DNA from: Erysipelotrichales bacterium
GTDB taxonomy: Bacteria; Bacillota_I; Bacilli_A; RF39; UBA660
Assembly (NCBI GenBank): GCA_022508565.1
Contig: JAFLUY010000004.1
Location: 47,454 to 111,453, forward strand
Direction of reading: 5' to 3'
Length of the DNA: 64,000 nt
The notes beneath the pieces were generated by a model that saw only the letters and a list, made by a program, of their open reading frames with translations, was not told the DNA's origin and did not search any database. Both the position numbers and the translations under genes were made by a program. Every line of letters starts with the position of its first letter. The stretch's first letter is position 1. Positions 23,227 to 29,553 of the stretch are shown here, piece by piece.

Positions 23227-26200
23227 TTAAGATTTTAAAATTCCAATTATAGGACAACCAAAATATCGCTCTATCATTGATCCTGAAGTTGCTGATTCAC
23301 CAAATTCAAAATAAAAAGTTAGACTGTACCAATCAATACTAGGATTTAATTCTGAAGACCAAAAATTAGAATATTCTTGATTGTCTAAAAAGATAGTTCC
23401 ATTATTATAAGAATAAGCAAATGGAATAAATAATTGTTTAGAATTATTAGTTTTTAATTTAAATATTTTTCCATTTAATCCAAGAACACCATTATAATTA
23501 GTTACGATTTCACTATCACATAAACTAATTAAATTTTGGAATTCTTCAGCATTAGGGATTTTCCAATTTTCTCCCATAATCTGCGTACAAGCATCATCTT
23601 CGGGTAAAAGATCTAATAACCTATCAGAATTATACTTAATTAAATCTTCTCTACTATTTCCGTATTTATAATCTGACCAAGCAAATTGTTTATCAACTCC
23701 TATTTGTGATCTAGTATATCCTTCTATATCACCCCATTGGAAATATTTAATATTGTTTTTCCAATCAGAATTCCATTCACTCACTCCAATAGGATATCTA
23801 GACCAAATACCAGCTTCTCCCATATCTATAAAATTAGGTTCATCTTCCTCTATATCAGGTTCATCATTAGCTTCATACCAACCAACTGTATTATTGTTGA
23901 AATTAGTAATTTCTTTTAATATCTTTTGGAGATGTATCATCGGTTTTTCATAATAATCTCCATCAGATAAAGTATCAGAAATATAAATGTCTCCTCCTCT
24001 TCTTACCTCAAAAGCATTATGTCTTCCTTTTATTTCTGGGATATATGATAAAAGTATTGTTAAACCTAATTGGAAATTCTCATAATCTTCAAGTTGATCA
24101 CTTCTATAGTAAATATCTACATTTAATAGATTTTCTTCTTTTGTAATCTTTATAATGATCCCTTGATTTTCTTCTATAGATTTTTGATATAAGTATGGTA
24201 TATTATTTTCTAAATCGCTATGTTTAGTATAAATATAATATATTGAATGCTCTTTATCAAAATTAGATGATAAATTAATTAATTGACTTTGCTCTGTATA
24301 AATATTAATTCCAGTAATGTTATTAAAATTAATATCTTCTTGTATATCTGCTTTAAAATTACAATATCCAACTTTAATATCAATAGGAATTTCTAAATCA
24401 GTTGAATCAAATTCATAATTATTTAATTCACATACCCCATTATATATTTCCGCGAATTCGGTAGAATCTATTTCAGGACACCCATTACCTATAGTAAATA
24501 AAGTAGAATTTAAATCTATGCTTGAATTATCTGTATCTTCGATTATTTCATCATTATCAGCAGGTTCATATTCTGAATTTTTATTTTCTTCTTTATAAGA
24601 TAAATTATATATTCCGGAAGCATGCTCTCCATCATTATAAACTCTATTGTATTGTCCTTCAGCGTGAGAAGAATGTCCGAAAGCAATATTTTCTGATCCT
24701 TCTGTATGAGAAGAGATACCTATAGATTCAGTAATTGTACCTTCCGCGTGAGAGGCATAACCTTGAGCAATTGTTGATTCTCCTTCGGCATGTGAAGCAT
24801 AATCTGTTGCAAAAGAATATAAGCCTTCAGCATGTGAAGCATATCCATCGATATCAACACGTGTACCATAACCTTCTGTATGAGTGTATTGTCCAAACGA
24901 ATAAGTGTTGCCTCCTTCGGAGTGGGAGCTATCTCCTATAGAATAAGTATATGAACCTTCAGCATGAGAAGATTCTCCTAATGAATTAGTATATGAACCT
25001 TCAGCATGAGCAGCTTGCTTAGATGCTATAGTATATTCTCCTTCGGTGTGGGAATATTTTCCATTTGCTTCAGTATAATATCCTTCCGCATGAGATGCGC
25101 AAGGACCTGCTATAGTATTTACTCCTTCTGCATGAGGGCCTCCAACTCCTGCTAAATCTCCATTAATAATTTCAGGATTTTTTCCAGGAGATTTTCTATA
25201 TCCGGCGTAAGTATTATATCCTTCAGCATGAGAATGCTCCGCTGCGGCATATGTATTAAGGCCTTCAGAATGAGAATTCGACCCAATCGCATAAGTATTA
25301 CTTCCTTCTGAGTGGGAGGCGGCTCCCGCTGCGTTTGTTTGTCTTCCTTCGGCATGTGCTCCATGTGCTCCTGCTATAGTTTTAATACCTTCTGCATGAG
25401 AAGCACAACTACTTATTAATAATCCAGTAATCGTTTGAAGCTCTGTGCCATCAGAACTCACTATAAATCCTGCGTAAGTATGATATCCTTCAGCATGAGA
25501 ATTATCCAAACCAGTATAAGTATCATATCCTTCCGCATGTGAACTTTCTCCTATTGCATATGTCCATTGTCCTTCGGCATGAGATCCTTCTCCTATAGAA
25601 TGGTTGTACATTCCTTCAACATGAGATCCTGTTCCAGAAGCATAAGTATGATATCCTTCAGAGTGAGTATATGGTTTTTCCGCATGAGTATTACTTCCTT
25701 CTGAGTGCGAATTTATAGCGGTGGCATACGTATGAAGACCTTCAGCATGAGAATATTCTCCTAAAGCATATGTATTTCTTCCTTCGGAGTGTGAAGATTC
25801 TCCTAATGCAAAAGTTAATTCTCCTTCCGCATGGGCTCCGTGAGAACTAGCCACAGTTTTCACTCCTTCGGCATGAGCTCCGCAACTACTAACCGCTAAA
25901 CCGGTAATAATTTCAAAATCTGTACCATCTGAGTTAAGTCGATATCCGGCATAAGTATTATATCCTTCTGCATGAGAATTAGCCAAACCAGCATATGTAT
26001 TTTCTCCTTCCGTGTGAGATCCTATTTCTAGTGATGTTGTATTCTTACCTTCAGCATGACTATATTTTCCGCTAGCAACATTATTTATATAATCATTAAA
26101 GATCTCTCCGTAGCTCAATACCGAATCGTCTTCTAAAGTTCCTGCTACATATTTTTCAGCGATTTCTATATCTTCAGGATCTTCTGATCTGGTCAATTGC

Positions 26201-29553: not shown

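Follow-up and report, generated by a model that had tools for sequence, protein, structure and literature searches.

The window analysed here is a 64-kb stretch of a 377-kb contig (377,382 bp) that has been binned as an Erysipelotrichales MAG. It contains four genes whose products, of 1164, 932, 2232 and 533 residues, carry arrays of a 14-residue repeat built from the motifs SHAEG and TxAxG (Table 1). When all six frames of the 64 kb were searched with the expression [STAGP]H[ASTV][EG]G, 66 matches were obtained; all of them (66/66) lie in these four ORFs in the coding frame, with none elsewhere, so that the arrays are present at the four places named in the initial annotation. The numbers of units are 30, 17, 12 and 7 in the 1164-, 533-, 932- and 2232-aa proteins, respectively, and the earlier range of 15 to more than 35 overstates two of these counts.

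Table 1. Location of the four repeat-bearing genes, their features and a neighbouring gene in the window.
Feature	Position (nt)	Strand	Basis
Putative mosaic fibre protein, 2232 aa	2886..9584	-	Pfam LRR_5 E 1e-40, Collagen E 4.1e-14; tail-fibre PHROGs
Predicted beta-roll, 2232-aa protein, aa 1187-1373	5466..6026	-	Layer register
Collagen-like region, 2232-aa protein, aa 509-1128	6201..8060	-	Pfam PF01391; Gly-X-Y runs
Putative fibre protein, 1164 aa	23227..26721	-	ORF list, translation; PHROG 25468, E 2.9e-68
C-terminal region, 1164-aa protein, aa 1039-1146	23284..23607	-	Weak Lcl_C / FISUMP likeness
C-terminal cap, 1164-aa protein	24004..24498	-	FTIGNG 24481-24498 and RHNAFEV 24004-24024
Predicted beta-roll array, 1164-aa protein, aa 221-703	24613..26061	-	Unit table, terminal layers
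N-terminal cap motif EIFNDY, 1164-aa protein	26089..26106	-	Motif coordinates
Putative fibre protein, 932 aa	26755..29553	-	PHROG 25468, E 2.1e-24
Predicted beta-roll array, 932-aa protein, aa 161-414	28312..29073	-	Unit table, terminal layers
EIFNDY motif, 932-aa protein	29101-29118	-	Motif coordinates
Stand-alone Peptidase_G2 protein, 204 aa	49383..49997	+	Pfam PF11962 E 5e-12, 46.2 bits vs cut-off 25
Putative fibre protein, 533 aa	51122..52723	+	Pfam YadA_head 35.9 bits vs cut-off 25
N-terminal cap motif EIFNDY, 533-aa protein	51320-51337	+	Motif coordinates
Predicted beta-roll array, 533-aa protein, aa 81-351	51362..52174	+	Unit table, terminal layers
C-terminal cap, 533-aa protein	52223..52273	+	FSIGNG ... 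RSNVFEI, motif coordinates

The distance from unit to unit is exactly 14 residues in 52 of the 62 spacings in the window. It is not strictly 14 as had been stated, since units of 32-33 residues (three) and 16 residues (one) occur in the 1164-aa protein, one of 27 and one of 15 residues in the 533-aa protein, and others of 15 and 16 residues in the 932-aa protein; the three 32-33-residue units bear a conserved insert of ~19 residues (YRLNSDGTDFEIITGLAVSSCG-like). Among the residues proposed to be invariant, His, Glu and the Gly directly after Glu (100%) are found in every counted unit of the window, whereas the second Gly, that of TxAxG, occurs in only 73% of them (73-79% when the wider family is included). 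The four small positions (4, 6, 11 and 13) are held by Ser (85%), Ala/Ser/Thr/Val (100%), Thr/Asn/Ser (100%) and Ala/Ser/Thr (98%), and the same pattern of small residues and Gly recurs in 6,490 distinct units from 271 proteins. Because the 42-bp DNA units are only 67-82% alike, the arrays are old and maintained by selection on the protein rather than products of recent slippage.

The 1164-aa protein begins with a domain that by sequence similarity is common to the 932-aa protein; a His/Glu shaft follows, then a cap interrupted by an inserted domain and, at the C terminus, a putative binding domain. Its array comprises 30 xHxEG layers (aa 221-698) and a terminal EHASG layer, a shaft of roughly 15-16 nm if 0.48 nm is taken per 14-residue layer. 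The motif EIFNDY stands one period ahead of the first SHAEG, with Phe at the position of His and Asp at that of Glu. Residues 1039-1146 give sub-threshold matches to Pfam Lcl_C (E 0.011) and NCBIfam TIGR02145 (E 0.0017), which are only a lead towards a candidate distal binding domain. The 932-aa protein has a looser array and an unrelated C-terminal half of ~480 aa. Its 12 units fall in two blocks (aa 161-234 and 284-381), with ~6 additional layers without His/Glu: the first part has five layers (SHVEG ... AHVGG) followed by three hydrophobic in-phase layers (SFIHG, STIFG and ALIHG), and the second has seven His/Glu layers followed by ALSTG, SISTG and EATFG. The 533-aa protein has 17 units (aa 81-332); its array runs through 16 xHxEG layers to SHSGG, which retains His only, and SFVHG and EIAFG come after it.

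The 2232-aa protein is a mosaic of BspA-type LRR, collagen-like runs with intervening domains, a roll, the cap module of the 1164-aa protein and an Asn/Cys/Gly-rich C-terminal repeat region. Its roll opens with five His-less YadA-type layers (SIASG, SFAHG, SIAIG, SFATG and SFVEG; aa 1187-1248, nt 5841-6026) and continues in the same phase with seven SHAEG layers (aa 1271-1368) and EHASG (nt 5466-5774). The collagen-like region, where GC rises to 0.405, holds 11 runs of 4-9 Gly-X-Y triplets, which among the four proteins occur only there. These runs, which share a chain with the roll, argue that this polypeptide is a parallel homotrimer; trimerisation chaperone domains in homologues likewise speak indirectly for three rolls packed round a threefold axis. 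The 1164- and 2232-aa proteins share the whole cap module, are nearly identical at the cap, and align in BLASTP with 39% identity over 532 columns (E 6e-75).

What had been described as a hinge after each array, IYNLS followed by F[TS]IG[ND]G, was confirmed, although as a C-terminal cap that is family-wide (consensus FxIGNGxSxxxRxNAxxVxxxG): the F[TS]IG[ND]G element is present in all four proteins, whereas IYNLS is found in only two. The 533- and 932-aa proteins continue straight into the second half of the cap, R[HS]N[AVI][FI].[VI]; in the 1164- and 2232-aa proteins ~150 inserted residues come first, located between FTIGNG and RHNAFEV in the 1164-aa protein.

The likeness to the left-handed beta-roll repeats of YadA that had been noticed from the sequence is backed by Pfam, PDB sequence searches, a predicted structure and fold searches. 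A search with the YadA_head HMM, as suggested earlier, gave scores above the cut-off of 25 bits for the 533-aa (35.9) and 2232-aa (25.5; aa 1197-1220, on the hydrophobic layers) proteins; the 1164-aa protein scored 14.9 bits, below the threshold, and the 932-aa protein gave no Pfam YadA_head match. Roughly one homologue in two has a precomputed PF05658 match. PDB sequence searches with phmmer and with a repeat profile returned trimeric autotransporter (TAA) heads only. The AlphaFold2 monomer model of the 533-aa protein has alternating short strands with pLDDT of ~98 over aa 120-350, and its only significant Foldseek matches in the PDB are beta-roll heads: BpaC (2e-9), UspA1, CbpF, BoaA, AtaA, EibD and YadA. 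The probability is 0.85-1.00 for these seven heads and below 0.25 for the next matches, left-handed beta-helix acyltransferases. For the TAA heads, TM-scores are low (0.1-0.25 on the query, rmsd ~8-17 A), which we interpret as a difference in twist between long solenoids. Thus, the repeat is confidently modelled as a YadA-like left-handed parallel beta-roll.

The repeat is therefore not a novel class of fold or family, as it had first seemed: two of the four proteins pass the YadA_head threshold, UniProt-derived tables already call viral relatives "LbR_YadA-like" or "YadA-like protein", and the His/Glu form is very common, with 4,005 protein clusters at E<1e-30. The narrower suggestion, that no described family has a fixed H-x-E rung, holds as far as checked: PDB sequence searches of the solved structures returned none with a near-invariant His/Glu array, and we found no description in the literature of a beta-roll with near-invariant His and Glu. 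The YadA-like heads (YadA 1P9H, BoaA 3S6L, UspA1 3PR7, AtaA 3WP8, EibD 2XQH and CbpF) have the same 14-residue turn, with small inward residues (Ser/Thr, Ala) on both strands and a Gly that closes the core strand, and the layers flanking the window arrays bear canonical YadA-head S-[VIF]-A-[ITF]-G motifs. In contrast to those heads, which have Val/Ile at positions 5 and 7, the arrays under our favoured register have His/Glu there, in ~98% of the in-phase layers, and only the flanking layers are canonical. The arrays also have their own N-cap (EIFNDY) and C-cap (FxIGNG...RxNAxxV), occur in phage fibre proteins, and are much longer, reaching 82 units in homologues. The best fold match, the BpaC-like head (7O23, E 2e-9), is a left-handed parallel beta-roll with a hydrophilic core. 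The BpaC work shows that a very stable beta-roll can have a trimer core that is polar, hydrogen-bonded and contains water (PMC9543794). However, the BpaC core is uncharged and small, with Thr at position 5 and Asn/Ser/Thr/Gly at position 7 in a three-layer repeat, whereas here charged His and Glu would fill the core in every layer.

Several observations point to phage as the origin of these proteins. The repeat occurs in annotated tail spike or tail fibre genes of two cultured phages (of Flavobacterium and Verrucomicrobia), and many homologues of the 533-aa protein end in a fused Peptidase_S74 (PF13884) or Peptidase_G2 (PF11962) domain. Besides the stand-alone Peptidase_G2, neighbouring genes in the window encode a T4 gp2-like protein, a lysin, an exonuclease and a TnsA-like endonuclease; many large ORFs of no known family are present as well, and GC is uniform (25-33%) outside the repeat-rich genes. 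Our slightly favoured reading, held jointly with that of the His-Glu core discussed below, is that the four ORFs encode structural proteins of the tail-fibre or receptor-binding type of a very large phage.

We consider it highly improbable that the four proteins are instead Erysipelotrichales surface adhesins, TAA-like or anchored to the cell wall. The NCBI label of the contig, sub-threshold NCBIfam matches to the TAAs Ata, BimA, EmaA and YadA, and the LRR and collagen-like adhesin models that match the 2232-aa protein would point that way. TAAs (type Vc secretion), however, are outer-membrane proteins of diderm bacteria. The NCBIfam matches reach only 21-38 bits where the cut-offs are 600-3000. 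In Pfam scans of the four proteins (E up to 1) no family of YadA anchors, stalks or necks was found, and no anchor domain occurs among the precomputed Pfam domains of the best 120 homologues. Partner domains in homologues are the phage fibre chaperones Peptidase_S74 and Peptidase_G2. The phage-type gene neighbours, the many ORFs of no known family and the uniform GC also argue against adhesins.

As in the chaperone-tipped phage fibres (Peptidase_S74 in endosialidase and T5 pb1; Peptidase_G2 in phi29 gp12), the chaperone-like domain is fused in many homologues. In the window, it is a separate ORF of 204 aa that also matches PHROG 4775 (pre-neck appendage protein C-terminus), and a Pfam scan found no fused Peptidase_S74 or Peptidase_G2 in any of the four putative fibres. 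The gene lies two genes upstream of that for the 533-aa protein, and its product, made up of this fibre intramolecular-chaperone/autocleavage domain, is a candidate trimerisation chaperone acting in trans. The shafts of the characterised chaperone-tipped fibres are triple beta-helices or right-handed beta-helices rather than beta-rolls.

In the beta-roll numbering of the BpaC paper, G@8 is invariant and positions 5 and 7 form the trimer core, position 7 adjoining the threefold axis and position 5 being peripheral and off-axis (PMC9543794). In the register that we favour, SHAEG would correspond to positions 4-8 of the canonical GxNSVAIGAxSxAx, with His at 5 and Glu at 7, and TxAxG would face solvent. 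Sequence patterns support this placement of His and Glu towards the threefold axis indirectly. The invariance of the SHAEG Gly, as compared with 73-79% for the other Gly, fits it as G@8. The outward positions of TxAxG have an entropy of 3.5 bits over 6,490 distinct units, equal to that of the loop positions, and a charged residue in 28% of these units; a residue too bulky for an axis position stands in 23%. In-phase layers without His/Glu put Phe/Ile/Val/Leu at the position of His, with the out-of-phase strand polar, as in SIAIG, SFATG and SFVEG (2232 aa), ALSTG and SISTG (932 aa), SFVHG (533 aa), and AIAEG, ALAEG, LFSVG and TVVFG in homologues. From the exchange of His with Phe, position 5 appears to be ring-sized. 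Moreover, phmmer and the repeat profile align SHAEG with the BpaC core strands STANG, STASG and STATG.

There is also evidence against a core-facing His/Glu. The repeat is pseudo-symmetric (7+7), and DSSP of the monomer model puts the invariant Gly within a strand rather than a turn. In an alternative that we regard as unlikely, TxAxG would form the trimer core like SVAIG of YadA, and His/Glu a solvent-exposed, salt-bridged stripe on three faces. Such a stripe would lend stability to the roll or serve as an outer binding surface for a periodic ligand or metal. Charged residues are normally at the surface, and phmmer takes this other register for YadA and BoaA, placing TYAIG/SYALG on the SIAIG/SVAIG core strand of YadA and TxALG on STALG of BoaA, as does the repeat-profile alignment to YadA. 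In the window proteins TxAxG is fairly hydrophobic, with Tyr 40% and Ile 19% at one of its variable positions and Ile/Leu 36% at the other. The would-be core, however, would vary as much as the loops, 28% of its layers would bear a charge, and Lys, Arg, Glu, Tyr or Phe would occur at the axis-proximal position (even TKAKG units exist); its would-be G@8, invariant in all solved beta-roll heads, would be Gly in only 73-79%. The flanking in-phase layers place Phe/Ile/Val/Leu on the His/Glu face and leave the opposite strand polar, and the near-total invariance of an exposed pair in thousands of phage fibres from different hosts would be hard to explain. Many long insertions in homologues come after the SHAEG Gly; with His/Glu exposed, they would fall between positions 14 and 1, where they are tolerated in TAAs, whereas the window's own insertions come after TxAx(G); as insertions occur in both turns across the wider family, their sites leave the register unsettled.

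The ends of the arrays are polarised. In the layer past the last xHxEG, His is kept and Glu is replaced by Ser/Gly/Gln/Ala in ~105 of 124 proteins (EHASG, SHASG, SHAGG and QHVQG), while the layer ahead of the first xHxEG keeps the acid and has a hydrophobic residue for His (A[ILV]AEG, or Phe and Asp in the cap IFND). When layer n has Glu, layer n+1 has His in 99.0% of 7,413 cases. Three of the four proteins in the window keep this polarity, as does the first block of the 932-aa protein; the second block of the latter breaks it at both ends. The polarity is also seen at the N-terminal end in both cultured-phage proteins. Since arrays typically open with a layer that has an acid and no His and close with one that has His and no Glu, His of layer n+1 is suggested to pair with Glu of layer n.

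We therefore lean slightly towards a buried His-Glu zipper in trimeric beta-roll phage fibres. [quoted passage not shown] Ser/Ala of SHAEG and Thr/Ala of TxAxG would fill the narrow interior of each chain's roll, and a buried polar ladder, with three His and three Glu in each layer, would take the place of the Val/Ile homotrimer core that YadA has at positions 5 and 7. His(n+1) would bond Glu(n) by a hydrogen bond or salt bridge; the ladder would probably fix the register of the three chains and zip them together, and could make fibre stability dependent on pH or ions. The trimeric state, the orientation towards the core, the His-Glu contact and its function are what we infer from the patterns described above, whereas the anatomy of the repeat, the family to which it belongs, its abundance and the polarity at the ends of the arrays are demonstrated here. 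Such a zipper would have to accommodate ~50% more side-chain atoms than Val plus Ile, with three Glu and three His per 0.48-nm layer, and the lack of a solved precedent for so highly charged a core counts against it.

Alternatively, core-facing His/Glu may serve to bind metal ions, either as axial cations held by three Glu per layer or at off-axis His/Glu sites between layers, and a regular line of such sites would set the chain register and stiffen the shaft. The metal sites known in fibres are few, with one per shaft or, in T4 gp37, seven, which argues against this. T4 gp37, pyocin fibres and P2-type spikes hold Fe in octahedral coordination through HxH motifs, three Glu around the axis of the T4 gp5 beta-helix hold a hydrated Mg and thus constitute a known cation site, and it has been suggested that ions in fibres act as "reference points" that set the register of the chains (PMC6116203). 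Like the HxH sites (T4 gp37, gp12, R-pyocin fibres and P2 gpV) and the Glu3-Mg site of gp5, the repeats have conserved polar residues on a beta-strand of a phage fibre. However, those sites point at the threefold axis of an interdigitated triple beta-helix or shaft, whereas a beta-roll trimer is three separate rolls; they are isolated, whereas His/Glu here recur at every 0.48-nm rung; and metal has been demonstrated only for the former systems. The recurrence of buried ions in trimeric phage fibres and the sequence patterns for core-facing His/Glu speak for metal binding, and a site formed by Glu(n) and His(n+1) would give the observed end polarity too. Moreover, anions sit on the axis at the N@d layers of TAA stalks (PMC9543794). 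Nevertheless, HxH is absent from the counted units, every one of which has H-x-E, and His at the peripheral position 5 probably could not reach an axial ion. One ion per 0.48 nm would be unprecedented and electrostatically costly, and the replacements inside arrays, Phe/Ile/Val/Leu for His and Gln/Ser/Gly for Glu but never Asp or Cys, are not typical ligand swaps. Metal binding as the role of the ladder thus seems doubtful to us; the one-layer His/Glu offset, the common Glu-to-Gln and His-to-Phe exchanges and the off-axis position 5 fit a direct His-Glu ladder better than a metal site at each rung.

In summary, the fold and the family of these arrays are known, and what is new, as far as checked, is an almost invariant His/Glu where, in the favoured register, known members carry the hydrophobic residues that join the chains. 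If the ladder is exposed, the finding would be a mere sequence variant of a known fold. Should His/Glu indeed stand in for the hydrophobic core of the trimer, these would be the first beta-roll fibres with a charged core; their ladder would rank among the most regular buried polar ones known, and would explain how very long arrays of up to 82 units hold three chains in register. It is conceivable, albeit rather improbable, that the repeats represent a distinct, very abundant and structurally unsolved beta-roll subclass of trimeric phage fibres, in which a continuous axial His3/Glu3 stack, repeated every 0.48 nm through 7 to >80 layers, holds a line of cations or forms an unbroken hydrogen-bonded ladder that relays protons; metal availability or pH would then switch fibre assembly or stability, for example as an environmental trigger during adsorption. 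A buried ladder would further offer a simple module for engineered rigid rods with stability responsive to pH or metals, and SHAEG units together with the EIFNDY N-cap and the FxIGNG...RxNA C-cap would provide an annotation signature for a fibre-shaft module of >4,000 protein clusters in phages and giant viruses, most of which are now labelled "hypothetical".

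The 14-residue repeat, made up of a SHAEG half and a TxAxG half, is seen directly on translation in the four ORFs where the initial annotation had placed it, which are called here by the length of their products (1164, 932, 533, and 2232 aa). When units were counted on these translations with the regular expression [STAGP]H[ASTV][EG]G, the range of 15 to more than 35 units per array given in that annotation held for the arrays of 30 and 17 units but not for those of 12 and 7. Likewise, the spacing is not strictly 14 residues, as had been stated, but mostly exactly 14, with units of 15, 16, 27, 32, and 33 residues also present. 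A six-frame regular-expression scan found no further copies elsewhere in the 64 kb, which excludes chance. The 42-bp units match each other at only 67-82% at the DNA level, indicating that the arrays are old and maintained at the protein level. The window itself is AT-rich (25-33% GC) and densely filled with large ORFs.

Features of the window, with repeat units counted by the regular expression [STAGP]H[ASTV][EG]G
Feature	Coordinates	Strand	Content
2232-aa protein	2886-9584	minus	7 units; BspA-type leucine-rich repeats (Pfam LRR_5)
Adjacent large protein	9577-12498	minus	BspA-type leucine-rich repeats (Pfam LRR_5)
598-aa ORF	20105-21901	minus	No family match; 27/54-bp tandem repeat at 20753-20883 (2-4 copies, 75-83% matches)
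1164-aa protein	23227-26721	minus	30 units; array at 24613-26061
932-aa protein	26755-29553	minus	12 units
Block of small genes	36695-45033	plus	RNase_T exonuclease, glucosaminidase, TnsA-like endonuclease, T4 gp2-like protein, DUF5672
204-aa ORF	49383-49997	plus	Peptidase_G2 fibre chaperone/autocleavage domain only (Pfam E 5e-12)
533-aa protein	51122-52723	plus	17 units

The repeat is a member of the YadA-like beta-roll family. Pfam YadA_head (PF05658) matches the 533-aa protein above the gathering threshold (35.9 bits) and the 2232-aa protein barely above it (25.5 bits); the 1164-aa protein falls below threshold and the 932-aa protein has no match to this family. NCBIfam matches are to trimeric autotransporter adhesins (TAAs) only, all far below threshold, and PDB sequence searches with the 533-aa protein and with a repeat profile returned, at weak E-values, only TAA heads (BoaA 3S6L, BpaC 7O23, YadA 1P9H, CbpF, and AtaA). 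The AlphaFold2 model of the 533-aa protein, a monomer built from 62 sequences, has a pLDDT of ~98 over aa 120-350, where short strands alternate regularly. In a Foldseek search of the PDB this model matched BpaC best (E 2e-9), then UspA1, CbpF, BoaA, AtaA, EibD, and YadA (probability 0.85-1.00), with no other confident matches and with left-handed beta-helix enzymes next at low probability. Among predicted viral structures, the best matches come from uncultured tailed phages and giant viruses, in proteins that already bear names such as "LbR_YadA-like domain containing protein", "YadA-like protein" or "Peptidase S74 domain-containing protein". Thus, the likeness to YadA-type heads noted in the initial annotation is right, but its proposal of a new repeat class is not borne out at the level of fold or family. 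Close structural matches in BFVD include giant viruses of eukaryotes (Klosneuvirus, Pithovirus-like, Fadolivirus, and Yasminevirus), one of them, annotated as a serralysin-like metalloprotease, with 40% identity over 294 columns, which indicates a fibre module common to phages and giant viruses.

The His/Glu repeat is common. The 533-aa protein, identical to an NCBI hypothetical protein on a 377-kb contig of an Erysipelotrichales MAG, has at least 7,815 related clusters by word-indexed search, and the 120 matches listed all carry 14-35 HxEG motifs, mostly 14 apart. In an exhaustive phmmer search of 1.84 billion representatives, the array gave 21,618 matches at E<1e-3, of which 13,078 reached E<1e-10 and 4,005 reached E<1e-30, with 21-82 HxEG motifs in each of the best 148. 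Among the matches listed, partner domains are the phage fibre chaperones Peptidase_S74 and Peptidase_G2 as well as collagen, CBM, and lipase domains, and none has a TAA anchor. Genes annotated as tail spike and tail fibre contain the repeat in two phages, immuto of Flavobacterium and P8625 of Verrucomicrobia. A tblastn search of 50,697 deposited phage genomes matched only 11 records; masking of the repeat by the low-complexity filter is the probable reason.

The genomic context offers few matches: scans of 20-30 ORFs nearby against PHROG and Pfam gave almost none, many window ORFs of 450-1217 aa have no match to a Pfam or PHROG family, and a tRNA scan found no tRNA genes. The block of small genes includes a glucosaminidase, likely a lysin, followed by a gene for a DUF6808/DUF6549 protein; other neighbours are a glycosyltransferase and a stand-alone Peptidase_G2 protein of 204 aa. 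The gene for the latter lies two upstream of that for the 533-aa fibre, and its product may be a trimerisation chaperone acting in trans; in none of the four repeat proteins is Peptidase_G2 fused to the fibre. The 377-kb contig ERZ27293317 k141_1147735, albeit deposited as part of a bacterial MAG, looks like a very large phage, and we conclude that the four proteins are its fibre or receptor-binding proteins.

Modules are shared among three of these proteins in the mosaic pattern usual for phage fibre genes. The conserved "hinge" that the initial annotation saw after the arrays is a family-wide C-terminal cap, FxIGNGxSxxxRxNAxxVxxxG. In the 1164- and 2232-aa proteins, an inserted domain of ~150 residues interrupts this cap, and the two share a single module that runs from the end of the array through the cap, this domain included (aa 629-950 and aa 1299-1620, respectively; E 6e-75). 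Similarly, the 1164-aa (aa 47-220) and 932-aa (aa 14-160) proteins have in common an N-terminal domain and the EIFNDY N-cap preceding the array. The 2232-aa protein also carries, in its C-terminal third (aa ~1750-2000), a second repeat, unrelated to the first, in which Asn, Cys, Gly, and Phe abound (e.g. NLFGINCYNNIFGYGFKYNSLENYCIQNTFGYTCTRNAIGKAFGNNTLGNGFSYNTIG); it matches no family and appears to be a further solenoid. In the 1164-aa protein, a ~19-residue insert (YRLNSDGTDFEIITGLAVSSCG-like) occurs three times (aa 259-281, 418-440, and 507-528), always interrupting the roll at one place in the unit, after TYAG; these inserts are probably hairpins projecting from the shaft at regular places.

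Which way the His and Glu point depends on the register of the repeat. In the canonical unit, G1-x-N-S4-V5-A6-I7-G8-A-x-S11-x-A13-x with invariant Gly at position 8, positions 4, 6, 11, and 13 point into the roll of each chain, the trimer core is built from positions 5 and 7, of which position 7 adjoins the threefold axis, and the second strand faces solvent (PMC9543794). Since the phage unit is pseudo-symmetric, either SHAEG occupies positions 4-8, with His at 5 and Glu at 7 in the core, or TxAxG does, leaving His and Glu on the solvent face and TxAxG in the trimer core. The phmmer alignments are split, with the former register against BpaC and the latter against YadA and BoaA. The SHAEG Gly is invariant, whereas 73-79% of units have the other Gly. 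Over 6,490 distinct units from 271 proteins, the outward TxAxG positions have an entropy of 3.5 bits, equal to that of loop positions, are charged in 28% of layers, and in 23% bear a residue too bulky for an axis-proximal site; TKAKG-type units occur on this outer strand. Furthermore, in-phase layers lacking His/Glu have a hydrophobic residue at the His position and a polar opposite strand. In the 2232-aa protein, such layers are SIASG, SFAHG, SIAIG, SFATG, and SFVEG, which precede its SHAEG layers and are the site of its Pfam match; the 932-aa protein has SFIHG, STIFG, ALIHG, ALSTG, and SISTG, the 533-aa protein SFVHG and EIAFG, and homologues AIAEG, ALAEG, SVAEG, LFSVG, and TVVFG. An in-phase strand keeps to one face of a continuous roll. 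The commonest replacement of His is Phe and that of Glu is Gln, Ser or Gly, in neither case typical surface residues. Taken together, these four independent sequence features favour SHAEG at positions 4-8 and make an exposed ladder unlikely, so that His and Glu are probably buried at the trimer interface.

Within the window, every insertion comes after TxAx(G), in keeping with the favoured register, but we set this aside as decisive evidence since many long insertions follow the SHAEG Gly in the wider family and both turns thus accept them. Apparent in-phase "KxK" layers are outer-strand TKAKG units displaced by shortened repeats, and anchoring on [TS]xA to gauge His/Glu conservation mixes the two half-repeats and is uninformative. 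The residues that do not belong to the ladder range from about neutral to acidic; as BpaC is a very acidic rod, net charge cannot decide whether the Glu are neutralised. In one subgroup of homologues (e.g. CHAEGWGTYCHTGGTY), Cys occupies both the SHAEG Ser and the TxAxG Ala positions, which face each other inside the roll, so that the pair might form a disulfide across each layer.

The array ends, which we analysed in a sample of 271 proteins from a family of ~4,000 clusters, follow a polarity rule. One period after the last xHxEG layer, His is kept and Ser, Gly, Gln or Ala replaces Glu in ~105 of 124 proteins (EHASG 49, SHASG 10, SHAGG 9, QHVQG 8, and others). One period before the first, the acid is kept and a hydrophobic residue replaces His, as in A[ILV]AEG or in the N-cap IFND[LY], whose Phe and Asp take the places of His and Glu, respectively. 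Glu in one layer is followed by His in the next in 99.0% of 7,413 cases. In the window, the arrays of the 533-aa and 1164-aa proteins obey the rule at both ends, as does the first block of the 932-aa protein, whose second block does not. The 2232-aa protein also conforms, SFVEG being its acid-only layer. The N-terminal layer is SVSEG in P8625, with the acid kept, and SLSQG in immuto, with Gln at the acid position, both having a hydrophobic residue at the His position; the immuto array ends in QHAQG. Thus, the His ladder lies one layer C-terminal of the Glu ladder, as would follow from a contact between each His and the Glu one layer before it.

Trimers we infer from the homologues' chaperone domains and from the 2232-aa protein, where eleven collagen-like Gly-X-Y runs and the roll are parts of one chain. 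The initial annotation had suggested that the His and Glu hold a line of ions, and fibres do provide precedents: three Glu hold a hydrated Mg round the axis of T4 gp5, Fe is bound at the HxH sites of gp37, pyocin fibres, and P2-type spikes, and ions of this kind have been proposed as register marks (PMC6116203). However, known fibre metal sites are sparse, the motif here is HxE rather than HxH, position 5 is off-axis, and the residues replacing His and Glu are not ligand-like, which makes a metal ladder improbable. We favour instead, from the sequence patterns, a buried His-Glu zipper of hydrogen bonds or ion pairs that would take the place of the hydrophobic core, for which BpaC is the closest precedent of a polar core. 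No His/Glu array was found among solved proteins in the PDB searches, and full-text literature searches found no description of such a YadA-like repeat in phage fibres, in line with the initial annotation, which knew of no described family with a fixed H-x-E. As far as we could find, therefore, neither the conserved His/Glu chemistry nor its probable place in the core nor the one-layer offset has been described or structurally solved. Such a zipper would fix the register of three long chains, sealing them into a rigid shaft of ~3-16 nm that would present varied distal domains.
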